Assembly (NCBI GenBank): GCA_947085095.1
Contig: CAMTVD010000035.1
Coordinates: forward strand, 30,035 to 94,034
From: an uncultured Thermus sp.
Lineage (GTDB): Bacteria; Deinococcota; Deinococci; Deinococcales; Thermaceae
Direction of reading: 5' to 3'
Length of the DNA: 64,000 nt
The translations under genes and the position numbers were made by a program. Position 1 is the first letter of the stretch; every line of letters starts with the position of its first letter. Under the pieces are notes generated by a model. It made no database searches, was not told the origin of the DNA, and saw nothing but the letters and a program-made list of their open reading frames with translations. Shown one piece after another: positions 9,906 through 57,933 of the stretch.

Positions 9906-13265
<3,360 letters not shown>

Positions 13266-27665: not shown

Positions 27666-30314
<2,649 letters not shown>

Positions 30315-39599: not shown

Positions 39600-40352
39600 A
39601 TGAACCAGCTGGAAATCCGCGACCTCTGGGCATCCATTGACGGGGAGATGATCCTTAAAGGGGTGAACCTGGTGGTGCCCAAGGGCCAGGTCCACGCCCT
39701 CATGGGCCCCAACGGGGCGGGAAAGAGCACCCTGGGCAAGATCCTGGCCGGGGACCCCGAGTACCGGGTGGAGAAGGGGGAGATCCTCCTGGACGGGGAG
39801 AGCATCCTGGACCTCTCCCCCGATGAAAGGGCCAAAAGGGGCCTCTTCCTGGCCTTCCAGTACCCGGTGGAGGTCCCAGGGGTGACCATGGCCAACTTCC
39901 TCCGCCTGGCGCTGCAGGCCCGCCTGGGCCGGGAGGTGGGGGTGGCGGAGTTCTGGACCAAGGTGAAGAAGGCCCTGGAGCTTCTGGACTGGGAGGAGGG
40001 CTACCTCTCCCGCTACCTCAACGAGGGCCTTTCCGGCGGGGAGAAGAAGCGGAACGAGATCCTGCAGCTTCTGGTCCTCGAGCCCTCCTACGCCGTCCTG
40101 GACGAGACCGACTCCGGCCTGGACATAGACGCCCTCAAGGTGGTGGCCCGGGGAGTGAACGCCATGCGGGGACCGGGCTTCGGGGCCCTGGTCATCACCC
40201 ACTACCAGCGCCTTCTCAACTACATCGTCCCCGACCGGGTGCACGTGATGATGGACGGACGCGTGGTGGCCGAGGGCGGCCCCGAGCTGGCCCTGGAGCT
40301 GGAGGCCAGGGGCTACGACTGGCTTAGGGAGAGGGTCAAGGAGGGCCTATGA
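39600..40352 (+). CDS. sufC: Fe-S assembly ATPase
   Basis: [32 protein letters not shown]. Confidence 0.97.
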
Positions 40353-41755
40353 GCGACGTGGACCTGAAGACCCTGGGAGACGAGTACAAGTACGGCTTCG
40401 TGGACGAGGTCAAGCCGGTCTTCGTGGCCGAGCGGGGCCTCTCCCGGCGGGTCATTGAGGCCATCAGCTACCACAAGGGCGAGCCCGAGTGGATGCTGAA
40501 GTTCCGCCTTAGGGCCCTAGAGATCTTCCAGAAGAAGCCCATGCCCACCTGGGGCCCCGACCTCTCGGGCCTGGACCTGGACAACCTGGTCTACTACGTG
40601 AAGCCCGCCGAGGTGCGGGACGCCAGGAGCTGGGAGGAGATCCCCGAGGAGATCCGGAAGACCTACGAGCGCCTGGGCATCCCCGAGGCGGAGCGCAAGG
40701 TCCTGGCCGGGGTGGGGGCCCAGTACGACTCGGAGATGGTCTACCACCGGGTCAAGGAGGAGCTGGAGCGCCAGGGGGTCATCTTCGTGGCCATTGAGGA
40801 GGGGATGAAGAAGTACGAGGACCTCTTCCGGGAGCACTTCGCCAAGGTGGTCCCCCCCGAGGACAACAAGTTCGCCGCCCTGAACTCCGCCGCCTGGTCC
40901 GGGGGCTCCTTCGTCTACGTGCCCCCGGGGGTGAAGGTGGAGCTTCCCCTCCAGGCCTACTTCCGGGTCAACACCCCGGAGTTCGGTCAGTTTGAGCGCA
41001 CCCTCATCATCGTGGACGAGGGGGCGGAGGTGCACTACATTGAGGGGTGCACCGCCCCCATGTACTCCACGGAAAGCCTCCACACCGGGGTCATTGAGAT
41101 CGTGGTGAAGCGGGGAGCCAAGAGCCGCTACACCACCATCCAGAACTGGTCCACCAACATGTACAACCTGGTGACCCAGCGGGCCCTGGTCTACGGGGAG
41201 GCCTACCACGAGTGGCTGGACGGCAACCTGGGCTCCAAGGTCACCATGAAGTACCCCTCCAGCTACCTCCTGGAGCCCGGGGCCCGCACGGAGATCCTCT
41301 CCATCGCCTTCGCCAAGACGGGGCAGCACCAGGACACCGGGGGCAAGATCGTCATGGCCGCCCCCCACACCTCGGGGACCATCGTCTCCAAGAGCATCTC
41401 CAAGGGAGAGGGGCGGGCCAGCTATCGGGGCCTGGTGAAGGTGATGGAAGGGGCCCGCCAGGCCAAGGCCAACGTGGAGTGCGACGCTCTCCTCATTGAC
41501 CCGGAAAGCCGGACGGACACCTACCCCTACATTGAGATTGAGGACGACTCCGCCCACGTGGGCCACGAGGCCACCGTCTCCAAGATCAACGACGAGCAGA
41601 TCTTCTACCTGCAAACCCGGGGCCTCAAGGAGGACGAGGCCGCGGCCCTGATCGTGCGGGGCTTCATTGAGCCCATCGCCAAGGAGCTACCCCTGGAGTA
41701 CGCCGTGGAGCTGAACCGCCTCATTGAGCTGGAGATGGAGGGTTCCGTCGGCTAA
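40349..41755 (+). CDS. sufB: Fe-S assembly scaffold
   Basis: [25 protein letters not shown]. Confidence 0.97.
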
Positions 41756-41785
41756 AGGCCGAGGCTTGCCGCGCAAGGAGGCAGG

Positions 41786-43081
41786 ATGCTGGTACTGGAC
41801 AAGACGCAAGTGCAAGCTATATCCCACGCCCTAGGGGAGCCCGCCTGGGTGCTCAAGAAGCGGCTTGAGGCCCTCGAGGCCTTCGCCCGCCTCCCCTACC
41901 CCAGCAAGAAGGACGAGAACTGGCGCTACACCGACCTCTCCGAGGCCCCCTTGGAGAGCCCGGTGGAAACCCCCAAAAGGCTCCACCTCACCCGGGACAC
42001 CCTGCCCGAGGTGGTGCGGCGGCGGCTGGAGAAGACCGATGTCTCCGCCTTCCTGGTCTTTGTGGGGCCCGACCTCGTCTACCGGGAGGTGCCCGAGGAG
42101 CTAGAGGCCAAAGGCCTCGTCCTCACCTCCCTGGCCGAGGCCATGCGCCTTTACCCGGGAAAGGTGGAGGCCACCCTCTTCGGGGCGGTCTTCACCGAGG
42201 ACAAGTTCGCCGCGGAGAACAGCGCCTTCTTCACCCACGGGGCCTTCCTCTACCTGCCCGCGGGGCTGGAGGTGGAGAAGCCCGTGGGGGTCTTCAAGGT
42301 GCTCCTGGAGGGGAACCAGGCCTCTGCGGGGCGGAGCCTCATCTTCCTGGAGGACAACGCCAAGGCCGCCTACATCGAAGAGTACCTCTCCTTGGACCTC
42401 CCCCCCACCCTGCACCTCTCCGCCACGGAGATGGTCTTGAGGCCTGGAGCCCGGCTGCGCCACGCCCACGTGCAAACCCTGGGCGACGGGGTCTGGCACT
42501 TCCACCGGCAAAGGGCCCTGCTGGAGCGGGATGCCGCCTTAAACGACCTGGTGGTCAACCTGGGCGGGCGCTACGCCAGGAGTGAGGTGGCCTCGGAGCT
42601 ATTGGGCCCGGGAGCGGAAAGCGAGATGCTGGGGCTTTACTTCGGCCACGGCCTCCAGCACTTCGACCACTACACCCTGCAGCACCACGTGGAGCACCAT
42701 ACCCGAAGCGACCTCCTCTACAAGGGAGCGGTGAAGGACGAGGCCCGGGCGGTCTTTTCCGGCCTCATCAAGCTGGAACGGGGGGCCCAGAAGACCGACG
42801 CCTACCAGGCCAACCGCAACCTCATCCTCTCCCCCACCGCCCGGGTGGACTCCATCCCCCAGCTGGAGATCGGGGCCAACGACGTGCGTTGCACCCACGG
42901 CAGCACCACCGCCCCCGTGGACGAGATGCAACTCTTCTACCTGCAGTCCCGGGGGCTTTCCCGTAGCCTGGCCCAGGAGCTTTTGGTCAAGGCCCACCTG
43001 GCGGACGTCCTTAACCGCATTCCTCTAAAGGCCTTAAGGGCCCACCTCGAGGCGGTCATCGAGGAAAAGGTGCGCATCTAA
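41786..43081 (+). CDS. sufD: Fe-S assembly protein
   Basis: ENWRYT, PQLEI..NDVRCTHG, FYLQSRG. Confidence 0.95.
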   Translation: MLVLDKTQVQAISHALGEPAWVLKKRLEALEAFARLPYPSKKDENWRYTDLSEAPLESPVETPKRLHLTRDTLPEVVRRRLEKTDVSAFLVFVGPDLVYREVPEELEAKGLVLTSLAEAMRLYPGKVEATLFGAVFTEDKFAAENSAFFTHGAFLYLPAGLEVEKPVGVFKVLLEGNQASAGRSLIFLEDNAKAAYIEEYLSLDLPPTLHLSATEMVLRPGARLRHAHVQTLGDGVWHFHRQRALLERDAALNDLVVNLGGRYARSEVASELLGPGAESEMLGLYFGHGLQHFDHYTLQHHVEHHTRSDLLYKGAVKDEARAVFSGLIKLERGAQKTDAYQANRNLILSPTARVDSIPQLEIGANDVRCTHGSTTAPVDEMQLFYLQSRGLSRSLAQELLVKAHLADVLNRIPLKALRAHLEAVIEEKVRI

Positions 43082-43084
43082 GCC

Positions 43085-43387
43085 ATGTGGACCCCGGTAG
43101 CCCGGCTGAGCGAGCTACAAAACGGCCGCCTGGTGGTGAAGCGGCCCGAGCACAAGAAGCCCATCCTCCTCCTCTACACCGGGGAGGAGGTCTTCGCCCT
43201 GGAGGACATCTGCACCCACGACGGCGGCCCCCTCCACGAGGGGGATGTGGAAGACGGCCAGATCGTCTGCCCCCGGCACGGGGCCCGCTTCGACCTGAAA
43301 ACAGGCCGGCAGACCCTTCCCGCCCCCAGGCCCGTCAAGGTCTTCCCCGCCAAGCTGGAGGGGGATACCATCCTTCTGGACCTATAG
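43085..43387 (+). CDS. Rieske-type ferredoxin
   Basis: CTH...CPRHG Rieske motif, directly after sufD. Confidence 0.92.
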   Translation: MWTPVARLSELQNGRLVVKRPEHKKPILLLYTGEEVFALEDICTHDGGPLHEGDVEDGQIVCPRHGARFDLKTGRQTLPAPRPVKVFPAKLEGDTILLDL

Positions 43388-43404
43388 ACGCCCATCCCGT
43401 CCGC

Positions 43405-43433
43405 AAGGCCCCAAGGAGGACTTGGGGCCTTTG
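43405..43433 (+). terminator. Hairpin/terminator after the Rieske gene
   Basis: AAGGCCCCAAG-GAGGA-CTTGGGGCCTTT. Confidence 0.6.
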
Positions 43434-43436
43434 TCC

Positions 43437-43492
43437 TTGACGGCGGGCGGAAGAAGCGCTAGGGTGAGAGTACCCACCCCACCTGGGGTGGG
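43437..43492 (+). promoter_or_regulatory. copZ-csoR-copA promoter with probable CsoR operator
   Basis: TTGACG-N17-TAGGGT followed by inverted repeat CCCACCCCA-CC-TGGGGTGGG (C/G tracts typical of CsoR sites). Confidence 0.75.
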
Positions 43493-43504
43493 GGGAGGTA
43501 AGGG

Positions 43505-43705
43505 ATGCTGAAGCTCAAGGTAGAAGGCATGACCTGCAACCACTGCGTGATGTCGGTGAAAAAGGCGCTTCTTAAGGTACCCGGGGTGGAGAAGGTCGAG
43601 GTGAGCCTGGAACGGGCCGAGGCCCTAGTGGAGGGCAAGGCGGACCCTGAGGCCTTGATCCGGGCCGTGGAAGAGGAAGGCTACCGGGCCGCCCTGGCGG
43701 GCTAA
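43505..43705 (+). CDS. copZ: Copper chaperone
   Basis: GMTCNHC HMA domain, 66 aa. Confidence 0.93.
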
Positions 43706-43714
43706 GGAGGCCCT

Positions 43715-43999
43715 GTGCCCCGCCACCCCCTCCACCTGGACCCCAAGGTGCGGGAAGAGGCCAAAAGGCGCCTCCTCTCCGCCAAGGGCCACCTCGAGGG
43801 CATCCTGCGCATGCTGGAGGATCCCCACGTCTACTGCGTGGACGTGCTGAAGCAACTCAAGGCGGTGGAGGGTGCCCTGGACCGGGTGGGGGAGATGGTC
43901 CTAAGGGCCCACCTCCGGGACCACGTGGCCACCGCCCACGAGCGGGGGGACGTGGAGGAAATCGTGGAGGAACTGATGGAGGCCCTCAAGTACCGTTGA
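43715..43999 (+). CDS. csoR: Copper-sensing repressor
   Basis: [24 protein letters not shown]; between copZ and copA. Confidence 0.92.
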
Positions 44000-44085
44000 T
44001 CCCACCCGGTCCAGGGCGGGGCAGAAGCCCAAGGGCACACCAGCCCGGGGAAAGCAAAGGGGTTTCCGCTAGGAGGTATGAAGCT

Positions 44086-46461
44086 ATGGCATTGGAAGTG
44101 AAAGTAGGGGTAAAGGGAATGACCTGCGCCTCGTGCGTGGCGCGGGTGGAAAGGGCCTTAAAGAGGGCCCCGGGCGTGGAGGAAGCCCGGGTCAACCTCA
44201 CCACCGAGGAAGCCTTCTTGCGACTGCAAGAAGGCGTGGACCTGGGCGAGGTGCTCAAGCAGGTGGAGGAGGCAGGTTACGAACCCGTGGTGGCCCGGGC
44301 GGAGATCCCCGTAAAGGGCATGACCTGCGCCGCCTGCGTGGCCCGGGTGGAACGGGCCTTGAAGAAGCTACCCGGGGTGCTTTCCGCCCACGTGAACCTG
44401 GCCACGGAGAAGGCCTTCGTGGAGTACCTCCCGGACACCGTGACCCTGCCCCGCCTGCGCCAGGCCATCCGGGATGCAGGGTACGAGCCCCTGGAGGTGG
44501 TCCAGGAGGAAAAACGGGCCCCCGCTTATCCCTTGGACCTCCTCATCGCCCTGCCCTTTGCCTTCCTCACCTTTCTCCTAGCCATGGGGCCCATGCTTCT
44601 TCCCCTTCCCCACCTCCCTCCGCTTTTGCAGGTCCTCACCGCCCTCCCTGTCCTTTACGCGGGTAGGCGCTTCTTCCGCCAGGCCCTGGCGGAGATCCGG
44701 CACCGCTCCCTGGGCATGAGCACCCTGGTGGCCCTGGGGGCGGGAAGCGCCTACCTTTACTCCTTTTTGGTCCTCCTCTTCCCCACCCTGTTCCCCGAGG
44801 AGGCCCGCCATCTTTATCTGGAAGCAGGAGCGGTGATCCTGGCCCTGATCCTTTTGGGCAAGCACCTGGAGGAAAAGGCCAAGGGGAAGGCCTCGGAGGC
44901 CATCCGCAAGCTCCTGGCCTTGAGGCCCAAGACCGCCCGGGTGGTTCAGGAAGGGGAGGAAAGGGAAATCCCCGCCGAGGCCCTCATCCCCGGGGATCTG
45001 GTGCGGGTGCTTCCCGGGGAGCGCATCCCCGCAGATGGGGTGGTGGTGGAGGGCTTTAGCCACGTGGACGAGGCCATGCTCACCGGGGAGCCCATTCCCA
45101 AGGTCAAAAAGCCCGGGGATGAGGTGGTGGGGGGTACGGTGAACGGGGAAGGAGCCCTCCTGGTGCGGGTCAGCCGGGTGGGGGAGGCCACGGTCCTGGC
45201 CCAGATGGCCCGCCTGGTGGAGGAAGCCCAGGCCTACAAGCCCCGGGTGCAGGAGGTGGCGGACCGCATCGCCAGCGTCTTCGTGCCCATCGTGCTCATC
45301 ATCGCCCTTATCACCTTTACCCTTTGGATTCTCTATGGCCCCGGCCTCTCCTACGCCTTCGTGGCCGTCCTTTCCGTGCTCCTCATCGCCTGCCCTTGCG
45401 CCATGGGCCTCGCCACCCCAGCGGCCATCGCTGTGGCCACGGGGCGGGCGGCCCAGCTCGGCCTCCTCTTCCGCAAGGGCCAGGCCATCGAAGGCCTCGC
45501 CCGGGCGGATACCGTGGTCCTGGACAAGACCGGGACCCTGACCCAAGGGAAGCCCACCCTCACGGAACGCCTGGGGTTTGCCCTAAGCCCTGAGGAGGCC
45601 TTGCGCCTCGCCGCCGCCTTGGAGCGGGGAAGCGAACACCCCATCGCCAAGGCGGTTCTGGAGGCAGCCAGGGATCTCAGCCTGCCCGAGGCCGAAGGGG
45701 TGCGGGCCCTGCCCGGGGAGGGCATCGAGGGAGTGGTGGAGGGGAAGAAGCTTTACCTGGGGGGCCCAGCCCTGATGGAGAGGCTTGGGGTGGCGCTTCC
45801 CAAGGAGGCCTGGGAGCTATCCGAAAAGGGCTACACCCCCCTTTACCTGGCGGATGGGGAGAGGCTTTTGGCCGCCTTCGGGGTCTTTGACCCCCCCAAG
45901 CCCGAGGCGCGAAGGGTGGTGGCCGCTTTAAAGGCCCTGGGCCTCAAACCCGTCCTCCTCACCGGGGACCACCCCATCCCGGCCAGGCGGGTGGCCGAGA
46001 CCTTGGGCATAGAGGAGGTGCTGGCCGGGGTGCGCCCTGAGGGTAAGGTGGAGGCCATACGGCACCTCCAGGCCCAGGGGCGGAAGGTGATCTTTGTGGG
46101 GGACGGCATCAACGACGCCGCCGCCTTGGCCCAGGCCGATGCGGGCATTGCCCTGGCCACGGGCACGGACATCGCCGTGGAGGCAGGGGATGTCATCCTG
46201 CTTTCTCCGAGCCTGGAAAGCTTGGTGGACGCCATCCTTCTGGCACGGCGTACCCTTCGGACCATCTACCTCAACTTCTTCTGGGCCTACGCCTACAACA
46301 TCCTCCTCATCCCCGTGGCGGCCGGGGCTCTTTACCCCTTCACGGGGCTTCTTCTGAACCCCATGCTGGCGGCCGGTGCCATGACCCTCTCCAGCCTCTT
46401 CGTGCTCAGCAACTCCTTGAGGCTAAAAGGGTTCCAGCCAAGGAGCTTTACCGTAGCTTAA
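44086..46461 (+). CDS. copA: Cu(I)-exporting P1B-1 ATPase
   Basis: Two GMTCxxC domains, TGE, CPC, DKTGT, GDGIND, YN and MxxSS. Confidence 0.95.
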
Positions 46462-46478
46462 TCCGCCGAGGCTAAGCT
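46446..46478 (+). promoter_or_regulatory. Direct-repeat promoter element, copy 1
   Basis: CTTTAC-CGTA-GCTTAA-N11-TAAGCT upstream of the SHOCT/two-component operon. Confidence 0.75.
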
Positions 46479-46498
46479 GGAACTAGGAGGTGAAAGGT

Positions 46499-46711
46499 AT
46501 GTGGTGGTGCGACCACGGTGGGTACCTGGGCTGGTGGGGGCCCCTCTTAAGCCTCCTTTGGTTCGCCCTCCTAGGCCTCTTGGTCTACTGGATCGTCAGG
46601 ACCTTAGCCCCTGAGCGGCGGGACCGGGCCTTAGAGGTGCTAAGGGAGCGCTACGCCAGGGGGGAGATCGACAAGGAAACCTTTGAGCGGATGAAGCGGG
46701 ACCTGGCATGA
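46499..46711 (+). CDS. Small membrane protein with SHOCT domain
   Basis: One TM helix, then ALEVLRERYARGEIDKETF; AGGAGG 8 nt before ATG. Confidence 0.85.
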   Translation: MWWCDHGGYLGWWGPLLSLLWFALLGLLVYWIVRTLAPERRDRALEVLRERYARGEIDKETFERMKRDLA

Positions 46712-47385
46712 AGGTCCTCCTGGCGGACGACGACCCGGCCCTCCTCGAGGTCCTCGGGGCCTACCTCGAGGGGGCCGGGTTTGAGGTCCTCGTGGCGGAG
46801 GACGGGGAGAAAGCCCTGGAGCTCTTCCCCACCGCCGATCTCGTCATCCTGGACCTGATGCTCCCCAAGGTGGGGGGCTTGGAGGTGGCCCGCATCCTGC
46901 GAAGGGAGCGCCCCGAGCTTCCCCTCCTCATCCTCACCGCCAAGGGGGAGGAGGAGGACCGCGTCCTAGGCCTGGAGCTCGGGGCCGACGACTACGTGGT
47001 CAAGCCCTTTAGCCCTAAGGAGGTGGTGGCCCGGGTCAAGGCCCTGTTGCGCCGAGCCGGGCTTAAGGAAGAGCTCGTTTACGGCCCCTTACGCATCCTC
47101 CCCAAGGCCCGCCAGGCCTACCTGGAGGGCAGACCCCTCTCCCTTTCCCGGCTGGAGTTTGACCTCCTTTTGACCCTCGCCCAGCACCCGGGGATGGTCT
47201 TCAGCCGGGAAAGGCTTTTGGAGAAGGTCTGGGGACCGGACTTTCCGGGCGTGGACCGGGTGGTGGACGTGCACATTGCCTCTCTCCGAAAAAAGCTCGG
47301 GGACGACCCGGAAAACCCCCGCTTCCTGGAGACGGTGCGGGGCGTGGGCTACCGCTTCAAGGACCTGGATGCGCCTCTTCCTTAA
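46708..47385 (+). CDS. OmpR-family response regulator
   Basis: DDD, LDLMLP, LTAK, KPF receiver; winged helix ending ETVRGVGYRF. Confidence 0.95.
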   Translation: MKVLLADDDPALLEVLGAYLEGAGFEVLVAEDGEKALELFPTADLVILDLMLPKVGGLEVARILRRERPELPLLILTAKGEEEDRVLGLELGADDYVVKPFSPKEVVARVKALLRRAGLKEELVYGPLRILPKARQAYLEGRPLSLSRLEFDLLLTLAQHPGMVFSRERLLEKVWGPDFPGVDRVVDVHIASLRKKLGDDPENPRFLETVRGVGYRFKDLDAPLP

Positions 47386-48490
47386 GCTCTTTCTGAGCCA
47401 CCTTCTGGTGGCCCTGCTCGCCCTTGGGCTTCTCCTGCTCCTGGCCGAGGCCTTCGCCCCCGCCTTCTACCGGGGGCACGTGGAGCGCATGTACCACGCC
47501 CTGGCCATGATGGGCGGGGGCATGATGGCCGAGGCCCTAAGGCAGGACCTGGAAAAGGGCCTGCGCTCCACCCTCACCGCCGCCCTCCTCTCCGCCCTCC
47601 CCCTTTCCGCCTTGGGGGCCCTTCTCACCGCCCTTTTCGCCAGCCTCCGCCTTTATCGCACCGCAAGGCTTCTCGCCGAGGGGAGCCGGCGCATGGCCCA
47701 GGGGGAGTACGGAATCCGGCTTCCCCTCTTGGAGCGGGACGAGCTCGGGGAGCTTGCCCTCCACTTCAACCGCCTGGCCGAGGCCTTGGAGAAGGTGGAG
47801 CGAACCCGGGCCGAGCTCATCGGCACCGTGGCCCACGAGCTCAGGACCCCCTTGGCCGCCCTCCAAGGCTACGCCGAGGGGCTTATGGACGGGGTCCTCT
47901 CCAAAGAAAAGGCGGCCGAAGGGATCCTGCGGGAGGTCAAGGCCCTGGGGCGCCTGGTGGAGGACCTCTCCCTCGTCTCCCGGGTGGAGGCGAAGGCGGT
48001 GGAGATCCGCCCCAGGCCCTTGGACCCCAAAGGCCTGCTTGAAGAGGCCTTCACCCGCTTCCAAAGCGCCTTCCAGGCCAAGGGGGTGGCGCTTCGCCTG
48101 GAGGCGCCGGAGGGGCTTTCCCCGGTGTGGGCCGACGAGGAAAGGGTCCTCCAGGTGCTGGCCAACCTCCTCACCAACGCCCTCCGCCACACGCCCCCAG
48201 GCGGCGAGGTGTGCCTTGGGGCCTTCCGCCAGGGGGAGGCTGTGGCCTTCCAGGTGGAGGACACCGGACCCGGCATCCCCCCGGAGCACCTGCCCCACAT
48301 CTTTGAGCGCTTCTACCGGGTGGACAAGGCCCGCAGCCGCAAGGAGGGAGGAAGCGGGGTGGGGCTCACCGTCGCCAAGGGCCTGGTGGAGGCCATGGGG
48401 GGAAGGATCTTCGTGGAAAGCCAAGTGGGCCAGGGAAGTCGTTTCACCTTCACCCTTCCCCTTTACAAGGGCTTAACATCCCAAGGCTAG
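47369..48490 (+). CDS. HAMP-domain sensor histidine kinase with a Met/His-rich extracytoplasmic loop
   Basis: HELRTPL, NLLTNA, DTGPGI, GSGVGL; loop HVERMYHALAMMGGGMM. Confidence 0.95.
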   Translation: MRLFLKLFLSHLLVALLALGLLLLLAEAFAPAFYRGHVERMYHALAMMGGGMMAEALRQDLEKGLRSTLTAALLSALPLSALGALLTALFASLRLYRTARLLAEGSRRMAQGEYGIRLPLLERDELGELALHFNRLAEALEKVERTRAELIGTVAHELRTPLAALQGYAEGLMDGVLSKEKAAEGILREVKALGRLVEDLSLVSRVEAKAVEIRPRPLDPKGLLEEAFTRFQSAFQAKGVALRLEAPEGLSPVWADEERVLQVLANLLTNALRHTPPGGEVCLGAFRQGEAVAFQVEDTGPGIPPEHLPHIFERFYRVDKARSRKEGGSGVGLTVAKGLVEAMGGRIFVESQVGQGSRFTFTLPLYKGLTSQG

Positions 48491-48493
48491 GGT
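48461..48493 (+). promoter_or_regulatory. Direct-repeat promoter element, copy 2
   Basis: CTTTAC-AAGG-GCTTAA-N11-TAGGGT, 7 nt before the cueP ATG. Confidence 0.8.
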
Positions 48494-48500
48494 AAAGGGC

Positions 48501-49019
48501 ATGAGAAAGACGTTGGCGTTCCTAGGCGTGGCGTTGGCCTTGGGACTGGCCCAGGCCCCTAGCCCTGAGGCCCTCAAGGGCCTGGGGCCCGAAGAGGCCC
48601 TGGCCCTGGCCAAGCGGTGGCGGGAAGAAGGGCAAAGGGTGGTGAGCTACGTGACCCCTGAGGCCTTCTTCTTCGAGTTCCCGGACGGCCGCAAGGCCCA
48701 GGTGGCCCTCAAGGACCGCTTCCTCCTGGCGGTGGCCCCCTATGTCAGCCGCACCCACCCCTGCCAGGTCCACTACTTTTCCAGCTGCACCGGGGAGCTA
48801 CAGGAGGAGGTATTTCTGGTGCGGGTGCTGGAGGGGGAAAAGGAGGTGCTCAAGACCCAGGTCAAGACAGGAAAGGACGGCTTCTTTGAGCTTTGGTTGC
48901 CCCGGAACCGCCGCTACACTCTGGAGATCCGCTTTGGAAATCTGGTGGCCACAGGGCCCGTGGCCACCTTCAGCCAAAGCCCCACCTGCCTGACCGGCTT
49001 CCGCCTTGCCTCGCGGTAG
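48501..49019 (+). CDS. cueP: CueP-family periplasmic copper-binding protein
   Basis: Signal peptide, APYVSRTHPC..H..SCTGEL, GFFELWLPRN, PTCLT. Confidence 0.82.
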   Translation: MRKTLAFLGVALALGLAQAPSPEALKGLGPEEALALAKRWREEGQRVVSYVTPEAFFFEFPDGRKAQVALKDRFLLAVAPYVSRTHPCQVHYFSSCTGELQEEVFLVRVLEGEKEVLKTQVKTGKDGFFELWLPRNRRYTLEIRFGNLVATGPVATFSQSPTCLTGFRLASR

Positions 49020-49025
49020 AACGCC

Positions 49026-49781
49026 ATGCGCCCTCTCGCCCTCCTTCTCACCCTGGGCCTTGCCCTAGCCCAAACCTCCTTGGGCCCGGTGCCTACCCGG
49101 GACGTCCACGCCCTTTTATGGCACCCCTCGGGAGCCTTGCTCCTGGGCCACCACGACGGCATTGTTCTCTGGAATAACAGCACCCCCCAGGACCTGGTGC
49201 GGCGGCGGGACTGGGACGCCATGAACCTGGCCTGGGACGGCAGGCGCCTCCTGGTTGCCGGGCACTGGATTCTTGCGGAAAGCCAGGATCTCAAGCGCTT
49301 CCGCGACCTAAAGCCCAAGGGCCTTCCCGCCTTGGACCTCCACGCCTATGCCGTAAATCCCAAGAAGCCCGAGGTCCACTACACCCTCGAGGCCACCTAC
49401 GGTTACCTCCGCAGCCAGGATGGAGGGCAGAGTTTTGCCAAGCTTCCCGCCCAGGGCCTGCCCAAGGCGGGGATGGCCTTTTTACTGGTGGACCAAAAAG
49501 GGCGCCTCTGGGCCTCCCTTATGGAAAGAGGGCTCTTCCTGAGCGAGGACGGGGGCCAAAGCTTCCGCCCCCTCCCCTCCCCAGACCCTGCCCCGGGACC
49601 CTTGGCCCTCTCCCCCTCCGGCACCCTGTACCTAGGAGGGCAGCTTGGAATATGGCAACGAACAGAAGTGGGCTGGCGCAGGCTCTGGCAGGGTACGGTG
49701 CTGGCCTTGGCCGCCCATCCCCAGCAGGAGGGTTTACTGGCCTGGGTGGACGGGAAGGGCACCCTCTGGCGGGGGCGCTAA
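49026..49781 (+). CDS. Secreted BNR/Asp-box beta-propeller-like protein
   Basis: Signal peptide, DVHAL, GHHDG, DLHA, two S.DGGQSF Asp boxes. Confidence 0.75.
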   Translation: MRPLALLLTLGLALAQTSLGPVPTRDVHALLWHPSGALLLGHHDGIVLWNNSTPQDLVRRRDWDAMNLAWDGRRLLVAGHWILAESQDLKRFRDLKPKGLPALDLHAYAVNPKKPEVHYTLEATYGYLRSQDGGQSFAKLPAQGLPKAGMAFLLVDQKGRLWASLMERGLFLSEDGGQSFRPLPSPDPAPGPLALSPSGTLYLGGQLGIWQRTEVGWRRLWQGTVLALAAHPQQEGLLAWVDGKGTLWRGR

Positions 49782-49784
49782 GGG

Positions 49785-50440
49785 CTATTCCTTCCAGGCC
49801 ACCCCGGCCACATGGGGGGCCACCAGGGGAAGGGGCAAAGCGAAGGACGCTGCCTCCACCCGGGCAAACCCGGCCTCCCGGATAAGGGCCAGGGTTTCCC
49901 GGTTGGGATGGCAACCATCCCCCAGAAGGGCCCAAGGGGAACAGAGGAAATCCTGGGCCCGGCGAAGGCAGGAACCCCGGTCACGCGAAGCGTACCTTGA
50001 GGGGCGGCCACGTGTTCCAAAAAGACGAAACGCCCCCCGGGCTTCAACACCCTGAGGATCTCCGCCAACGCCCGCCTGGGATCCTCCACCGAGCACAGGA
50101 CCAAGGTGGCCACCACGGCCTCCACGCTTCCCTCCGGCAGGGGGATGGCCTCCGCCTGACCTAAAAGAACATCGCCGGAAAGCCCCCTGAGGCTTAGAGC
50201 CCGCCGGAGGTGGGGGTGGAAGTAGGGATTGGGCTCGAGGCCAATCCAGTAGACCCCATCCGGCAGGTAGGCCAGGTTGACCCCCGTTCCCGGGCCGATC
50301 TCCAACACCGTGCCCGCCAGGTCTCCCAAAAGCCTCCTCCGCCAAGGCTCGCTTACGTGGGCGTGCCCCTGGGAAAGGGTGGGTAGCAGTGCGGCGAAGA
50401 ACCGAGCCCTTAAGCCCCCCTTAGCCCCCATGCTTCCCAT
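49785..50440 (-). pseudogene. Class I SAM-dependent methyltransferase, frameshifted by a 20-bp insertion
   Basis: LEIGPGTG, LVLCSV, RVLKPGG.FVFLEHV in one frame; GCHPNRE C-terminus in another; removing 49981-50000 joins them in frame. Confidence 0.85.
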
Positions 50441-50441
50441 G

Positions 50442-51266
50442 CTAGAGGTTCCAGTAAAGCACCGTGTCCAAAAGCCCCAGGGCCACGAAGACCACCCCTG
50501 CGCCCCTTAGAAGGACGCTTCCCGCAAGGCGCATCCCCCTCAAGGCCTGGCCCCGGCTCATGCGGGCGAAAAGGAAGAGCAGGAAACCCAGGGGAAAGCC
50601 CGTCCCCAGGGCGAAGAGAAGGGGAAAGAGAAACCCAAAGGGAGAGGCCAGGGCCAAGGGAAGTAGAAGCCCGAAGAAAAGCCAGAAGAGGGTAGGGCAG
50701 AAGGCCAAGCCGTAAACCCCGCCCAAAGCTAAGGGCCCAAGAAGTCCACCCCACGCCTCCACCCGGGCCACCCAGCCCTCCGATGCCGCCCAGGCCAGGG
50801 GCCAGCGCACCACCCCCAAGAGGCCCAAGCCCACCAGGACCATGAAGGGGCCAAGGGCCAAGCGCACCGGGCGGAAGACCGCCCCGGGGTTGTCCAGGGA
50901 CCCGCCTAGCAAGAAGAGGACCACTCCGGCAAGCACCAGGTAGGTGAGGGCCTTCCCCAGGAGAAAGGCCAGAAACCTGGGCCAGACCCTTCCCTGAATA
51001 GCGGAAGGAGCCAGGTAGGCCAGGGCACTGGCCCCCGTGGTGATCTGGCAGGGAGCGAAGGCCGCCAGGACTCCCAGGAGAAAAGCGGAAAGCCATGGCA
51101 CCCCCACCTCCCGCCTCAGCCCGTCCACCCACGGGGCCAAGAGGGCGTATAAGGAGTTGGCTACCCGGTAAAGCTCCCAGGATACCTCTTTCAGTAACCC
51201 ACTTCCCAAGGCCAACCCAATCAGGACCAGGAAAGCGAAACCAAGCCCCACGTATCCTCTCGGCAT
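50442..51266 (-). CDS. CcdA/DsbD-like (UreH/TauE-like) membrane protein
   Basis: Multi-TM with FAPC and AFCP membrane Cys motifs. Confidence 0.75.
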   Translation of the reverse strand: MPRGYVGLGFAFLVLIGLALGSGLLKEVSWELYRVANSLYALLAPWVDGLRREVGVPWLSAFLLGVLAAFAPCQITTGASALAYLAPSAIQGRVWPRFLAFLLGKALTYLVLAGVVLFLLGGSLDNPGAVFRPVRLALGPFMVLVGLGLLGVVRWPLAWAASEGWVARVEAWGGLLGPLALGGVYGLAFCPTLFWLFFGLLLPLALASPFGFLFPLLFALGTGFPLGFLLFLFARMSRGQALRGMRLAGSVLLRGAGVVFVALGLLDTVLYWNL

Positions 51267-51274
51267 CTACGTAA

Positions 51275-51347
51275 AGACTAGGGGCCCAATGTTAAGCCCA
51301 GGTAAAGCCAGCTCCTTTACGCCAGCTTAACAGTACCGGTCTAGGGT
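51275..51347. promoter_or_regulatory. Back-to-back direct-repeat promoter elements, copies 3 (minus) and 4 (plus)
   Basis: Minus: CTTTAC-CTGG-GCTTAA-N11-TAGTCT (51307..51275); plus: CTTTAC-GCCA-GCTTAA-N11-TAGGGT (51315..51347). Confidence 0.8.
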
Positions 51348-51364
51348 ATAGGTGGAGGTGGATC

Positions 51365-51607
51365 GTGGGAATGATGGGTTTCGGCAGCATGGGGTTCGGG
51401 TGGTTCCTCGGGCTTCTCAACATGCTCCTCATCCTGGCCCTCTTGGCTGGCCTCTTTTACCTGGGGCTTCGGGCCTGGGGGAGAGGCGGCGGGCCCAAAA
51501 AGGATGAGGCCCTGGAGGCCCTGCGCCTCCGGTACGCCAGGGGCGAGCTGGACGAGGAAAGCTACAGAAGGCTTAGGAAGGAACTGGAAAGGGGAGGTGA
51601 AGCATGA
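51365..51607 (+). CDS. Second small SHOCT-domain membrane protein
   Basis: Met/Gly N-terminus, one TM, ALEALRLRYARGELDEESY. Confidence 0.82.
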   Translation: MGMMGFGSMGFGWFLGLLNMLLILALLAGLFYLGLRAWGRGGGPKKDEALEALRLRYARGELDEESYRRLRKELERGGEA

Positions 51608-52257
51608 AACGCTACGGTATGGTCTTAGGAGTTCTGGGCCTTTTGCTCTTGGGCCTTGCCCTCACCCAGGGCATGATGGGGAACTTCGGCCCGGGGATGA
51701 TGGGCTACGGCCCCCAGTACGGCCCGGGGATGATGGGCTACGGGATGATGGGCGGCCACGGGATGATGGGCATGATGGCGGTCTACCCCCCGGAAGCCCG
51801 CCCCATTCCCCAGGCAGAAGCCAAAGCGCGAATGGAGGCTTACGCCAAGCGCCTCTACCCAGGGGCACGCCTTAAGGACTTCATGGCCTTCAGCCAAAAC
51901 TACTACGCCCAGGTGGTGGACGAGAAAGGGCAGGGGCTTTTTGAGCTCATCGCCGACCGCTACGCCGGGGTAGTCTCCCCGGAACCTGGCCCCAACATGA
52001 TGTGGAACACCCGCTACAGCATGATGGGCGGGCCCGTGCAGACTCCTGTCCGCTTCTCTGTGGAGGAAGCCAGGAAGCTGGCCGAAACCTTCCTGAAAGG
52101 CTACCTCCCGGATGCCCGGGTCCTGGGAACCGGGGCCTTTCCCGGCTACTACACCTTTGACTTCGGGCGTAAGGAGGTGGAGGGCATGCTTTCCGTGAAC
52201 GCCTACACAGGGGAGGTCTGGGTCCACACCTGGCACGGCTTCTTCCTGGGAGAGTGA
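51604..52257 (+). CDS. Secreted Met/Gly-rich protein with PepSY-like modules
   Basis: Signal peptide, GMMG repeats, VNAYTGEV, WVHTWHG. Confidence 0.75.
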   Translation: MKRYGMVLGVLGLLLLGLALTQGMMGNFGPGMMGYGPQYGPGMMGYGMMGGHGMMGMMAVYPPEARPIPQAEAKARMEAYAKRLYPGARLKDFMAFSQNYYAQVVDEKGQGLFELIADRYAGVVSPEPGPNMMWNTRYSMMGGPVQTPVRFSVEEARKLAETFLKGYLPDARVLGTGAFPGYYTFDFGRKEVEGMLSVNAYTGEVWVHTWHGFFLGE

Positions 52258-52397
52258 TCCCGGTAGGGCCCTTGCCCGGGGCAGCTGCCCCGGGCGGGGC
52301 CCAGGGCCTTTCCTATACCCCCCAAAACTCCTCAATACAACTTTCACGAAAGGCCTTTTCTCTCAGGTTCCGCTACCCTTTAGGTAGGGAGGGTACC

Positions 52398-52787
52398 ATG
52401 CCGGACTTAAGGAAAACCCTGAAGACCAGCCTGGCCGAGGCCCGGGCCCGGTTGGAAACCGCGCTAAGGGAAGAAGGTTTCGGCATCCTCACGGAGATCG
52501 ACGTGGCCGCCACCCTCAAGGCCCGCCTGGGCCTGGAAAGGCCCCCCTACCTGATCCTGGGAGCCTGCAACCCCAGCCTGGCGGCCAAGGCCCTCGAGGC
52601 CGAGCCCGATATCGGCCTCCTCCTCCCCTGCAATGCGGTGCTCAAGGAGGGGCCAGAGGGCGTGGAGGTCCTCTTGCAGGATCCCAGGGAGATGTTCCGG
52701 GTCCTTCCTACAGAAACCCAGGAGGCGCTCAAACCCGTAGCCGAGGAGGCGAGAAACCGGCTGGAGAAAGCCTTGGCCAAACTCTAG
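52398..52787 (+). CDS. DUF302 family protein
   Basis: GFGILTEIDV, ILGACNP, IGLLLPCN. Confidence 0.87.
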   Translation: MPDLRKTLKTSLAEARARLETALREEGFGILTEIDVAATLKARLGLERPPYLILGACNPSLAAKALEAEPDIGLLLPCNAVLKEGPEGVEVLLQDPREMFRVLPTETQEALKPVAEEARNRLEKALAKL

Positions 52788-52803
52788 GGGGTTCTGGAGG
52801 GAC

Positions 52804-52836
52804 CTTTATACTTCTTTTACAAACCCCCCCTATCCT
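52804..52836 (+). promoter_or_regulatory. Degenerate direct-repeat promoter element, copy 5
   Basis: CTTTAT-ACTT-CTTTTA-N11-TATCCT, 8 nt before the oxidase ATG; same geometry as copies 1-4. Confidence 0.55.
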
Positions 52837-52844
52837 CTAAGGGT

Positions 52845-54248
52845 ATGAATACCGACCGCCGAACCCTTCTTAAGCTCACGGCAGGCCTTCTTCTATCTCC
52901 CCTGGCCCGGGGCCAGGCCTCCTTCCTCGCCCCCCCGGTTCTCAAAAGCCGGGAAGGGCTCCTGGAGGTGCGGCTGAAGGCCGCCCCCACTCCCGTTACC
53001 GTGGCCGGGCGGGAAGCTCGGCTTTGGACCTATGGGGGTAGCTTCCCGGGGCCCACCCTTCGGGTACGCCCTGGGGATACGGTTCGCCTCGGGCTGGAAA
53101 ACCTCCTCCCCGAATCCACCAACCTGCACTGGCACGGGCTTCCCATCTCCCCCAAGGTGGACGACCCCTTTTTGGAAATCCCGCCCAGGGAAACCTGGAG
53201 CTATGTTTTCACCGTCCCCCAGGACCTGGCGGGAACCTTCTGGTACCACCCCCACCTGCACGGGCGGGTGGCCCCCCAGCTCTTCGCCGGACTAGCGGGG
53301 GCCATTGTGGTGGAAAGCCCCGTGGACGGGATTCCCGAACTCCGGGAAGCCGAGGAGCACCTTTTGGTCCTCAAGGACCTGGAACTCGCATCGGGCCGTC
53401 CCGCCGCCCACACCCCCATGGACTGGATCAACGGCAAGGAGGGCAACCTCCTCCTGGTCAACGGGGCTTCCCGCCCCACCTTGCGGGCCAGCAAGGCCAC
53501 CTTGCGCCTCCGCCTCCTGAACGCCAGCAACGCCCGCTACTACCGGCTCCAGTTGGAAGGGCATCCCCTTTACCTCATCGCCAGCGACGGGGGCTTCCTG
53601 GAGGAACCCTATGAGGTCCCCGAACTCCTCCTGGCCCCCGGGGAACGGGCAGAGGTCCTGGTGCGCTTCCAGAAGGAAGGGGCTTTCCGCCTCCTCGCCC
53701 TTCCCTACGACCGAGGGGTCCACATGATGGGCGGGATGGAGCACATGGGCCACGGAGGAATGGCCATGGGAACAAGCCAAAGGCCCCAAACCCTCCTCAC
53801 CCTGGTGGCCCCGCCCCGCCCCAAACCCCTCCCCCTGCCCAAGGCCCTGGCCAAACTGCCCGCCCTCAGCCCCAACCAGGCCAGGGTGACCCGGCGCATC
53901 ACCTTCACGGAGGACATGATGGCCGGGCGCTTCTTCATCAACGGCAAGACCTTTGACCCCCGTCGGGTGGACTTCCGCGGGCGGGTGGGCGACCTCGAGG
54001 TCTGGGAGTTGGAAAACCAAGGGGACATGGACCATCCCTTCCACCTCCACACCCATCCCTTCCAGGTCCTCTCCGTGAACGGCAAGGCCTTCCCTTACCG
54101 CGCCCTTAAGGACGTGGTGAACCTAAAGGCTAAGGAGGTGGTGCGCCTCCTGGTTCCCCTTAGGAACCTGCCCGGGAAAACCGTCTTCCACTGCCACATC
54201 GTGGAGCACGAGGACCGGGGCATGATGGGGATTCTGGAGGTGAGCTAA
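52845..54248 (+). CDS. Tat-exported multicopper oxidase (laccase/CueO-like)
   Basis: DRRTLLK Tat motif, HWHG, WYHPH, HPFHLH, HCHIVEHEDRGM, Met-rich loop. Confidence 0.96.
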   Translation: MNTDRRTLLKLTAGLLLSPLARGQASFLAPPVLKSREGLLEVRLKAAPTPVTVAGREARLWTYGGSFPGPTLRVRPGDTVRLGLENLLPESTNLHWHGLPISPKVDDPFLEIPPRETWSYVFTVPQDLAGTFWYHPHLHGRVAPQLFAGLAGAIVVESPVDGIPELREAEEHLLVLKDLELASGRPAAHTPMDWINGKEGNLLLVNGASRPTLRASKATLRLRLLNASNARYYRLQLEGHPLYLIASDGGFLEEPYEVPELLLAPGERAEVLVRFQKEGAFRLLALPYDRGVHMMGGMEHMGHGGMAMGTSQRPQTLLTLVAPPRPKPLPLPKALAKLPALSPNQARVTRRITFTEDMMAGRFFINGKTFDPRRVDFRGRVGDLEVWELENQGDMDHPFHLHTHPFQVLSVNGKAFPYRALKDVVNLKAKEVVRLLVPLRNLPGKTVFHCHIVEHEDRGMMGILEVS

Positions 54249-56275
54249 TGCCTCCCCACCACCATCACCACCACCATCACCACCCTTCCCACACTGCCTC
54301 TACTAAGGCTTTGGACCGGCATGCCGGCCATACCCCGGAGATGTTCCGGAATCGCTTCCTGGTCTCGCTTCTCCTCACCCTGCCGATCCTTTACGCCTCC
54401 GAGGAGGTGCGGGGCCTCCTCGGCCTTCCCCCCTGGGAGGGAGCCTCCTGGATCCCCCTCCTCCTCGGAACCCTCATCTACTTCTATGGCGGGGGCGTAT
54501 TTCTCCAGGGTGCCAGCCGGGAGCTAAGGGGAAGGCGGCCGGGGATGATGACCCTGGTGGCCTTGGGGATCACCGTGGCCTATATCTACAGCCTGGCCGT
54601 GGAGCTGGGCCTAAAGGGGAAACCCTTCTGGTGGGAACTGGCCACCTTGGTGGACGTGATGCTCCTGGGCCATTTTCTGGAAATGAAGGCCATCCTGGGG
54701 GCAGGGGAGGCCCTAAGGGCCTTGGCCAAGCTGATGCCCCAGACGGCCCACCGGATCCGGGATGGCCGGATTGAGGACGTGCCCACCGAGGCCCTAAAGG
54801 AAGGCGACCTCATCCTCATCCGCCCGGGGGAGCAGGTGCCTGCGGATGGCGTGGTGGTGGAAGGAGCCACCAGCATGAACGAGGCCTTCCTCACCGGGGA
54901 GTCCCGGCCCGTGGCCAAAGGGGTGGGGGACGAGGTGCTGGCTGGGGCGTTAAACGGGGAAGGAGCCATCGTGGTGCGGGTAACCCGCACCGGAACCTCC
55001 ACCACCCTGGGGCAGATCATGCGCCTGGTGGAGGAAGCCCAGGTTTCCCGGAGCCGGTTTCAGGACCTTGGTGAACGAGTCGCGGGGTGGCTTTTCTACG
55101 TGGCGGTGCTGGGTGGAAGCGCAACCTTCCTCCTATGGCTTCTAGCCGACGCATCCTTGTCCTTCGCCCTGGAGCGGGCGGTGACCGTGGTGATTATCGC
55201 CTGTCCCCACGCTCTGGGCCTGGCCATACCCTTGGTGGTGGTCAACGCCACAGCCATGGCCGCCCAAAGGGGAATCCTCATCCGAAACCGGGAGGCCTTT
55301 GAGCGGGCCACGGGCCTAAGGTATGTGGCCCTGGACAAGACCGGCACCCTCACCGAAGGGCAGTTTGAGGTGCGGGCGGTGTATGCGGATGGCCTTGGGG
55401 AGCAGGAGGCCCTAACCTTGGCCGCGGCCCTCGAGGCCCTCTCCGAGCACCCCCTGGCCCAGGCCATCCTGGAGGCCGCCAAGGAGCGGGGGCTTCCCCT
55501 CCCCTCGGTCCAGGACTTCCGGGCCATCCCCGGGAAAGGGGTGGAGGGCCGGGTGGAACGCCGCCTCTACCGGGTGGGCCGCCCAGAGTGGGCGGGGGAG
55601 CTGGGCCTGGAAGTGCCCCCTTCCCTGCGGCAGGGCCTGGAGGAGGCCGAGGCCCGGGGGGAGAGCGTGGTGGCCCTGATGGACGAAAGTCGGGTCCTCG
55701 CCTACCTGGCCCTCCGCGACCGCCTCCGCCCCACGGCCAAGCAGGCGATAGACGCCCTGAAGCGCATGGGGATCACCCCGGTGATGCTCACCGGGGACGC
55801 GGAGGCCGTGGCCCGAACCGTGGCCCGGGAGCTGGGGATAGAGCGCTACCACGCCCGGGTGCTACCCCAGGACAAGGCCCGTATCGTGCGGGAACTAAAA
55901 TCCCAAGGCCCCACCGCCTTTGTAGGGGACGGGATCAACGACGCCCCTGCCCTCTTGGAGGCGGACCTTGGGGTGGCCATCGGAGCGGGGACCCACGTGG
56001 CCATGGAATCCGCCGATGTGGTGCTGGTCAAAAGCGATCCCCTGGACGTGGTCCGCCTCCTCCACCTGGCCCGGGCCACCCGGAGGAAGATGCTCCAAAA
56101 CCTCTTCTGGGCCACGGGGTACAACATCGTGGCCCTGCCCCTGGCCGCGGGCGCGGCCTACCCCTTCTTTGGCCTCCTGCTTCCCCCGGCCCTCGGGGCC
56201 CTCTTCATGAGCCTTTCCACGGTGGTGGTAGCCCTCAACGCCCTCCTCTTAAGGCGGGCGCGCCTGGATACCTAG
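54248..56275 (+). CDS. copB: Copper-exporting P1B-3 ATPase
   Basis: N-terminal His9 tract, CPH, DKTGT, YN and MSLST. Confidence 0.92.
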   Translation: MPPHHHHHHHHHPSHTASTKALDRHAGHTPEMFRNRFLVSLLLTLPILYASEEVRGLLGLPPWEGASWIPLLLGTLIYFYGGGVFLQGASRELRGRRPGMMTLVALGITVAYIYSLAVELGLKGKPFWWELATLVDVMLLGHFLEMKAILGAGEALRALAKLMPQTAHRIRDGRIEDVPTEALKEGDLILIRPGEQVPADGVVVEGATSMNEAFLTGESRPVAKGVGDEVLAGALNGEGAIVVRVTRTGTSTTLGQIMRLVEEAQVSRSRFQDLGERVAGWLFYVAVLGGSATFLLWLLADASLSFALERAVTVVIIACPHALGLAIPLVVVNATAMAAQRGILIRNREAFERATGLRYVALDKTGTLTEGQFEVRAVYADGLGEQEALTLAAALEALSEHPLAQAILEAAKERGLPLPSVQDFRAIPGKGVEGRVERRLYRVGRPEWAGELGLEVPPSLRQGLEEAEARGESVVALMDESRVLAYLALRDRLRPTAKQAIDALKRMGITPVMLTGDAEAVARTVARELGIERYHARVLPQDKARIVRELKSQGPTAFVGDGINDAPALLEADLGVAIGAGTHVAMESADVVLVKSDPLDVVRLLHLARATRRKMLQNLFWATGYNIVALPLAAGAAYPFFGLLLPPALGALFMSLSTVVVALNALLLRRARLDT

Positions 56276-56290
56276 GGCTAAACTGGAGGC

Positions 56291-57505: not shown

Positions 57506-57516
57506 TGGGGGCATCC

Positions 57517-57933
57517 ATGAGCGTCCTTGACGAGCTTTACCGGGAGATCATCCTCAAGCACTACCAGAGCCCCAAAAACTTCGGGGTCCTGCCCCAGGCC
57601 ACCAAGACCGCCGGGGGCATGAACCCTTCCTGTGGGGACCAGGTGGAGGTGATGGTGCGGCTGGAAGGGGATACCATCGCCGACATCCGCTTCCAGGGTC
57701 AAGGGTGCGCCATCAGCACCGCAAGCGCCTCCATGATGACCGAGCTGGTGAAGGGGAAGAAGGTGGCGGAGGCCCTGGAGCTTTCCAGGAAGTTCCAGGC
57801 CATGGTGGTGGAAGGAGCCCCCCCCGACCCGGCCCTTGGGGATCTCCTGGCCCTTCAGGGGGTGGCCAAGCTCCCCGCCCGGGCGAAGTGCGCCACCTTG
57901 GCCTGGCACGCCCTCGAGGAGGCCCTGCGGTGA
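57517..57933 (+). CDS. sufU: SUF-system NifU-like protein
   Basis: NPSCGD, GCAIS.AS, R.KCATL.W. Confidence 0.93.
   Translation: MSVLDELYREIILKHYQSPKNFGVLPQATKTAGGMNPSCGDQVEVMVRLEGDTIADIRFQGQGCAISTASASMMTELVKGKKVAEALELSRKFQAMVVEGAPPDPALGDLLALQGVAKLPARAKCATLAWHALEEALR

Follow-up and report, generated by a model that had tools for sequence, protein, structure and literature searches.

Activators of the OmpR/PhoB family bind tandem repeats placed over the -35 region of their promoters. The only characterised relative of the system treated here is CopRS of Corynebacterium glutamicum, which, in the available portion of its description, is activated by copper and not by nickel (Schelder et al., 2011, PMC3140484). 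As far as that portion goes, it pairs an OmpR-type regulator with a two-transmembrane (TM) kinase that has a short His/Met loop and HAMP, HisKA, and HATPase domains, and its operator, TGAAGATTT-nn-TGAAGATTT (CTTCA-type on the other strand), is found at one site 59–78 bp upstream of copR and serves two operons. Here, we compare with it a copper gene cluster in a 64,000-nt stretch of DNA from an uncultured Thermus sp. (positions 30,035–94,034 of contig CAMTVD010000035.1, assembly GCA_947085095.1; hereafter the window). A direct-repeat element, or box, heads five transcription units of this cluster. Judged from its sequence and surroundings, the element is probably the operator of the adjacent two-component system, which would work like C. 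glutamicum CopRS and activate five promoters in response to copper.

Other described systems share some of these features. CusRS, PcoRS, and Pseudomonas CopRS also place envelope detoxification genes under two-component control by copper, but they use a large periplasmic sensor, and in E. coli a palindrome, not a direct repeat, precedes cusC. E. coli PhoB has an identical promoter register and the same winged-helix fold family, whereas its half-site (TGTCAY), signal, and targets are different, and its R201 is replaced by Ser, Ala, or Gly in the clade of the window's regulator. The PmrA/BasR box (CTTAAT) and the cyanobacterial SphR Pho box (CTTAAC/CTTTAC) have very similar half-sites at an 11-bp period, to judge from the accessible parts of their descriptions. 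However, the regulator tree places BasR at a distance, the SphR box consists of three repeats and lies at phosphate genes, and the targets of both are unrelated.

The repeated element and its promoters

A previous sequence-only reading of this DNA had proposed four copies of CTTTAC-N4-GCTTAA-N11-TANNNT and a degenerate fifth. The exact copies are present at 46446–46478 (+), 48461–48493 (+), 51275–51307 (-), and 51315–51347 (+), compared with a mean of 0.01 matches in 100 dinucleotide shuffles, and the genome-wide scan which that reading had suggested (2,076,267 bases) found no match beyond these four at up to two mismatches. The fifth copy, at 52804 (CTTTAT ACTTC TTTTAC N10 TATCCT), is far from the exact string, but as a direct repeat of the form YTTWAY-N5-YTTWAY-N10-TANNNT the element covers it with no mismatch. 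The proposed 11-bp period of the half-sites holds as hexamer-N5-hexamer at all five boxes. The clusters of relatives contain 129 distinct sites, with the consensus CTTTAC-N5-CTTAAC-N10-TAnnnT; these sites were picked with the pattern itself at up to one mismatch, which biases the core columns. The G preceding CTTAA (91 of 129 sites) is part of the spacer, and the base following CTTAA, which is C in 125 of 129, is part of the half-site. Thus, the fixed distance to the -10 stands, but it is 10 nt from the hexamer rather than the 11 nt originally given.

When only the 67 non-Thermus sites are used to build a matrix, its five best matches in the genome (20.7–35.7 bits) are the five window sites, and the next-best match scores 14.7 bits. 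The same matrix gave one match above 20 bits (21.4) in three simulated 2-Mb genomes, so site 1 lies near the chance tail under the non-Thermus matrix. Across the order, a slightly relaxed pattern matches exactly in 125 of 201 genomes and its reversed control in about 27, by our own count. The 14.7-bit match itself (G000:C6:51894) is a different repeat before an exported-protein gene, about 6 kb from another two-component pair, and is probably the operator of that pair.

Two of the boxes lie in coding ends, which raises the question of whether the element is a product of chance or of codon usage. The stop codon of copA falls within box 1, and box 2 translates as Leu-Tyr-x-Gly-Leu-Thr. However, boxes 3–5 are intergenic, and the shuffled expectation is that given above. 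In 32 Thermus genomes, the box occurs in 25 and the reversed pattern in none. Moreover, when box 2 is anchored on the kinase C-terminus, its codons are fixed as CTT in 20 of 20 loci and TTA in 18 of 20; TTA is rare (2.1% of 889 Leu codons), and this points to constraint at the DNA level. An origin by chance or coding can be practically dismissed.

Each box heads one of five units, of which three have the start codon 7–8 nt past the -10 and two have a Shine–Dalgarno leader. At none of the five sites does a -35 match exceed 3/6, leaving no usable -35. A sigma-70 consensus scan of positions 43200–57000 returned no promoters, as expected from the absence of -35 elements, and its terminator matches (11, against 15.9 in shuffles) are uninformative. 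The 22 public runs found all consist of assembled contigs, which do not reveal transcript starts, strands, or levels. A TANNNT hexamer about 6–7 nt before the start codon is an experimentally tested promoter form in the phylum, according to the accessible part of PMC12340547, and a -10 this close to the start codon (6–7 nt) occurs at 63 of 152 sites in relatives. Two control promoters, those of E. coli phoB and pstS, share the register hexamer-N5-hexamer-N10-(-10). The five sites therefore look like OmpR/PhoB activator boxes: tandem hexamers at an 11-bp period end 10 nt before the -10, a good -35 is lacking, and the adjacent regulator has receiver and Trans_reg_C domains.

A regulator that mainly represses by blocking the -35 region, with relief on signal, would also explain a box in this position, all the more as TANNNT alone can drive transcription in the phylum (PMC12340547, as accessible). 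However, a 10-nt spacing that is fixed throughout the phylum, together with the missing -35, fits an activator that contacts polymerase, and C. glutamicum CopR activates in the available account of it. Repression is accordingly a very improbable alternative.

The adjacent regulator as the probable binder

The OmpR/PhoB-family response regulator encoded within the cluster (46708–47385, +; PF00072 and PF00486; D49 is the likely phospho-acceptor) is very probably the protein that binds the element. A search for a close solved structure of this regulator found none, the best being MtrA (1e-53). Its orthologue, counted at 79% identity or more, is present in 23 of the 32 Thermus genomes, and all 23 carry the box; among the nine genomes lacking it, seven also lack the box. 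The sites appear to have decayed where the regulator was lost. In four of five regulator-less genomes examined, the SHOCT gene and the -10 remain after copA, with one or both half-sites drifted, as in CTCAGC CGTAG CCTAAG, whose spacer is identical to that of box 1. Across Deinococcota, the box sits beside regulator orthologues and before differing genes (DUF305, CueP, oxidase, CopB).

The form of the box also varies with the recognition helix (RVVDVHIASLR in the window's regulator, where H189 corresponds to PhoB H198 and S192 to PhoB R201). This comparison used 60 regions, hand-picked among the listed regulator matches, together with the G023 remnant and G026; 59 contain a regulator. T-type boxes accompany His at position 189 in 51 of 53 cases and Gln in the single case, but Arg in none of five. 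At four of these five Arg loci a G-type box, SGTWAC-N5-SGTWAC-N10-TAnnnT, is found instead, and it occurs without mismatch at no His locus. In total, five of eight Arg loci have a G-type box (L041:5734–5830, L042:10411–10520, L043:8482–8514, L047:8521–8553, and L163:12061–12159). In L163, tandem Arg and His regulators share the same kinase family, and the first is preceded by the G-type and the second by the T-type box. An apparent counter-example with T-type boxes beside an Arg regulator (G277) was resolved into two tandem systems. The equivalent residue of PmrA, His193, was proposed as a base-specificity determinant from a docking model (PMC3973317, as accessible). In L041–L047, the Met of the kinase loop has been lost, copper neighbours are for the most part missing, and Pfam gives no match for the box-led genes; this system was possibly co-opted to another signal.

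The covariation bears on whether the box is instead read by the Thermus phosphate regulator or by another OmpR paralogue, of which the genome has five. In the accessible parts of the sources, cyanobacterial SphR boxes hold CTTAAC/CTTTAC at an 11-bp period (PMC1906773), and the PmrA box is CTTAAT-N5-CCTAAG, so resemblance alone would allow such a reader. However, the box type tracks the helix of the adjacent regulator, genomes that have the paralogues but lack the cluster regulator have no box, and the repeats at the genome's pstS promoter are of another type (TTGAC/CTGAC), scoring below 12 bits. Reading by another regulator is thus a slim prospect. Co-occurrence, decay, helix–box covariation, and the PhoB register support the sequence-only assignment of the cluster's own regulator as activator, and make it highly probable that this protein binds and activates the five promoters.

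The TTGAC/CTGAC tandem repeats, which also have an 11-bp period, lie upstream of pstS (G000:C21, around 13100–13185) and of an OmpR-type regulator gene (G000:C28, upstream of 2776). They are a candidate Thermus Pho box. The window's element was rejected as a Pho box on the ground that the pstS promoter of the same genome lacks it.

Copper as the probable signal and kinship with C. glutamicum CopRS

The sensor kinase (47369–48490, +) combines two TM helices, a short helical hairpin on the outer side, and HAMP, HisKA (H156), and HATPase domains; its closest named records come from Thermus. The outer part is predicted to be a helical hairpin that extends the two TM helices (residues 2–47 and 51–110; predicted local distance difference test, pLDDT, 95). 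The hairpin carries H37, M41, D60, and a Met-rich turn, with His37 and Met41 one turn apart. H37 and M41 are invariant in 12 of 12 sequences, and His37 is kept in 73 and Met41 in 68 of 104 family representatives. A fold search with the model of the N-terminal part gave nothing at E ≤ 0.001, the only matches being to HAMP. The kinase family reaches Chloroflexota and Spirochaetota, where it has the same neighbours, as well as Actinomycetota and cyanobacteria.

In relatives, the box-led genes encode DUF305 (at the majority of Deinococcus loci), DUF411, cupredoxin, oxidase, CueP, DUF302, and CcdA, and further Lgt, LysM/M23 peptidase, and DUF3105. We take DUF305 and DUF411 to be copper-binding, CopM- and CopG-like proteins. 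The window's own genome (93% complete) yielded no DUF305 gene. Because of this gene content and the kinship to C. glutamicum CopRS, copper is quite likely the main signal.

The kinship was assessed through Corynebacterium plasmid orthologues of C. glutamicum CopRS from two other species (L141 and L142). Their local regulon is like that of the window: CueP, multicopper oxidase, CopB, DUF305, and CcdA/TlpA. The window locus likewise has cueP, a multicopper oxidase gene, and copB adjacent to the regulator pair, and its kinase has the short outer loop between two TM helices, with His and Met in the loop. CopS H41 aligns by eye with H37 of the window kinase, and CopS H56 with D60; the L142 kinase has exactly the residues published for CopS in the available account (H39/H41/M42/M44/H56). 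Both plasmid loci are laid out like the C. glutamicum cop locus and contain the TGAAGATTT repeat. Identity between the window and L142 is 39% for the kinase and 42% for the regulator. In the kinase-core tree, the window family groups, though weakly, with the CopS type apart from CusS, RppB, PhoR, and the other kinases of the genome. Membership in two other groups was rejected on family scores, namely CusRS/PcoRS/CzcRS (TIGR01387, 151 against a cut-off of 279.2 bits; TIGR01386, 162.9 against 292.55) and cyanobacterial RppAB (NF041734, 150.9 against 250 bits; NF041735, 160.4 against 400).

A direct repeat at an 11-bp period is common to the window boxes and, as far as its description is available, the C. 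glutamicum CopR operator. However, the window boxes are CTTWAC repeats at five promoters, each at a fixed 10 nt before the -10. A scan for the CopR box, run on loci other than the window, found matches in L141 and L142 and near-matches in L112. Since the window's CTTWAY repeats differ from the TGAAGATTTnnTGAAGATTT operator, the system is a variant, and not a member, of the C. glutamicum-type CopRS. The sequence-only inference of a copper regulon is supported, although it had missed this characterised relative.

Starting from the register, distribution, and covariation of the box, which are observed, we infer the following course. Copper outside the cytoplasmic membrane would bind His37 and Met41, with Asp60 and the Met-rich turn, on the kinase hairpin. 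The kinase would then phosphorylate the regulator, a transfer that is established for the family. The regulator would bind the two hexamers head-to-tail over the missing -35 and recruit polymerase carrying the housekeeping sigma factor in the manner of PhoB. Five promoters would switch on, those of the regulator's own operon, cueP-BNR, ccdA-methyltransferase, SHOCT-PepSY-like-DUF302, and oxidase-copB, three of them leaderless.

The same regulator and box could also serve a kinase that senses general envelope, thiol-redox, or other-metal stress in the manner of BaeS, CssS, or DsbS, the copper genes being only part of its output. His and Met can bind Ag, Zn, or Ni. The best full-length NCBIfam similarities of the kinase, all under cut-off, include BaeS/SmeS and WalK, its sister group in the kinase tree is BaeS, and the box-led targets include CcdA, Lgt, and LysM/M23 peptidase. 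However, the core that recurs in four families of the order consists of dedicated copper proteins, the hairpin residues His37 and Met41 are conserved in the proportions given above, and the available account of C. glutamicum CopRS describes a response to Cu and not to Ni. Lineages in which the His/Met loop is changed or lost mostly have no copper neighbours (L041–L043, L047, and L054). A broader envelope or metal signal is therefore unlikely, though less so than the other alternatives.

Several observations count against a copper-activated regulon read by the adjacent regulator, or limit the evidence for it. CcdA, Lgt, M23 peptidase, and DUF3105, which are among the targets, are not specific to copper. 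The kinase clade with CopS is weakly supported (72.6/84), the regulator tree places BaeR and CpxR in the sister group, and the C. glutamicum box differs in sequence, has the opposite orientation, and lies further upstream. Two Thermus genomes in which no regulator was found retain a box: G023 keeps one site with one mismatch in a decayed cluster, and G021 (65% complete) has one exact site. Regulator-less genomes keep copA and lack the oxidase (5 of 5 searched); co-occurrence is partly trivial because targets were lost together with the regulator, and related genomes in these counts are not independent. For two of the eight Arg loci, a G-type box is absent from the surrounding 10 kb, and a T-like tandem with no -10 in register lies at one of these two; one further Arg locus is truncated by its contig end. 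The Arg regulators tested form one clade, so the His-to-Arg switch counts as one event. Finally, the docking model places PmrA His193 opposite position 3 of the half-site, not 2, by our own count on the accessible part of that source.

Further loci extend these comparisons. In three Deinococcus-type loci (L048, L050, and L055), the genes headed by boxes include an additional lgt (prolipoprotein diacylglyceryl transferase) and one for a LysM/M23 peptidase, and lgt is also present in a Rubrobacter cluster. Work in Listeria has reportedly linked copper to lipoprotein remodelling. A de novo repeat search of the Chloroflexota and Spirochaetota loci, under a rule of two near-identical sites, found nothing strong. 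By eye, arrays of about four hexamers (CTTTAC/CTTCAT/TGTCAC types) with an 11-bp period were noted in Chloroflexota L110, L112, L118, L126, and L132, where they precede SHOCT or Gly/Met genes and end 10 nt before a -10. With two mismatches, the CopR box of C. glutamicum fits the L112 array, and the regulators of these loci mostly have Arg at the PhoB-201 position.

A wider reading joins these lines, and we put it forward tentatively, as somewhat doubtful. In this view, minimal copper sensors with a His/Met helical hairpin form a widespread and little-studied family, which extends to Chloroflexota, Spirochaetota, Actinomycetota, and cyanobacteria and of which the window system would be the Deinococcota branch. 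The operators of the family would obey a readable code set by the recognition helix. One His-to-Arg substitution would rewire CTTWAC to SGTWAC, insulate a duplicated system from its neighbour, and have let one lineage drop its copper genes for a new signal.

The five units, the CsoR arm, and their significance

Box 1 (CTTTAC-N5-CTTAAT-N10-TAAGCT, 46446–46478, +) overlaps the copA stop codon and precedes the SHOCT-regulator-kinase operon, which would be autoregulated through it. The small membrane SHOCT protein (PF09851; 46499–46711, +) starts at an ATG at 46499 with a Shine–Dalgarno sequence, set from orthologues, rather than at the GTG at 46490 given by the open reading frame tool. Box 2 (48461–48493, +) lies within the C-terminal codons of the kinase, with the leaderless cueP ATG 7 nt past its -10. 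The unit it heads (48501–49781, +) comprises cueP (48501–49019; PF21172, and NF038094 over cut-off) and a BNR-like/F510_1955-like gene (49026–49781; NF045728 under cut-off). Box 3 (51275–51307, -) heads the divergent unit 49778–51266, with the ATG of a ccdA/DsbD_2-like membrane protein gene (50442–51266, -) 8 nt past its -10. The second gene of this unit, a class I methyltransferase (49778–50440, -), carries a 20-nt insertion near 49980–50000 that shifts its frame relative to four orthologues. Contigs of two public runs have the insertion and those of two do not, which suggests strain variation more than a mistake in assembly.

Box 4 (51315–51347, +) stands back-to-back with box 3, 7 nt apart; the gap is 3–8 nt in other loci, and two regulator dimers may therefore sit together. 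It precedes genes for a SHOCT protein (51365–51607), a Gly/Met-rich PepSY-like exported protein (51604–52257), and a DUF302 protein (52398–52787). The PepSY label has no Pfam confirmation and is a lead only, from 20% of the members of one Atlas cluster. Box 5 (CTTTAT-N5-TTTTAC-N10-TATCCT, 52804–52836, +) has the oxidase ATG 8 nt past its -10 and heads the unit 52845–56275 (+), which comprises an orthologue of the crystallised T. thermophilus laccase, a multicopper oxidase (52845–54248), and a His-rich CopB-type P1B ATPase (54248–56275).

The copper cluster sits inside a suf locus, with sufC-sufB-sufD and a small ferredoxin-like gene upstream (39600–43387) and sufS-sufU (56291–57933) starting 15 nt past copB. 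Transcription continuing from box 5 might connect copper stress with Fe-S repair, but a -10-like TAAACT of its own lies 6 nt before the sufS ATG. A sufS gene also follows the remnant cluster in five of five regulator-less genomes.

The copZ-csoR-copA genes (43505–46461, +; Pfam HMA, Trns_repr_metal, and P1B ATPase) form the CsoR arm. As the sequence-only reading had noted, their promoter lacks the motif. The copZ promoter (43437–43493, +) has a canonical -35 and -10 (TTGACG, N17, TAGGGT) and, in contrast to the five boxes, no direct repeat. Its CsoR operator (43472–43493) matches the TtCsoR site quoted in PMC10318464 at 21 of 22 positions. The T. thermophilus CsoR arm is comparable in that it belongs to the same locus, directly upstream, with its operator present at 43472. 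It differs from the box-led units in using a cytoplasmic repressor, a GC-rich palindrome, and a canonical -35, as cited in the accessible parts of PMC10318464 and PMC10141476. The proposed separation of the two arms holds for promoter type but not as full independence. Box 1 overlaps the copA stop codon, and the terminator scan found no terminator-like site there, although its overall matches, below those in shuffles, are uninformative. CsoR-controlled copA transcription may thus read into the regulator operon, in which case the arms are coupled. Two Thermus loci (L008:16643–17198 and L011:16656–17205) have a DUF305 gene headed by a box inserted between csoR and copA, so copA would fall under the regulator too. 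In L014 and L015, the CsoR operon points away from the regulator.

A search of the open literature, with subscription papers, supplements, and RegPrecise outside its scope, turned up neither a description of this site nor one of a copper two-component regulon in Thermus or Deinococcus. The site and its spread in Deinococcus-Thermus are apparently undescribed, but the mechanism is familiar: regulons in which an OmpR regulator uses direct repeats are ordinary, and no new kind of mechanism is involved. Its value lies in a phylum-wide signature, in hints to the function of unknown genes, and in a natural specificity switch. Side-by-side paralogues that differ in helix residues and boxes make specificity and insulation in the OmpR family testable by a one-residue swap. 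The 33-nt signature predicts the regulon across Deinococcus-Thermus and offers a compact, probably copper-inducible promoter for thermophile genetics. If the wider reading is true, the box assigns a copper-stress role to DUF302, SHOCT, the PepSY-like Gly/Met protein, DUF3105, and F510_1955-like proteins. For Thermus itself, the regulon would supply the missing envelope arm of copper control, including the promoters of the T. thermophilus-type laccase and CopB.

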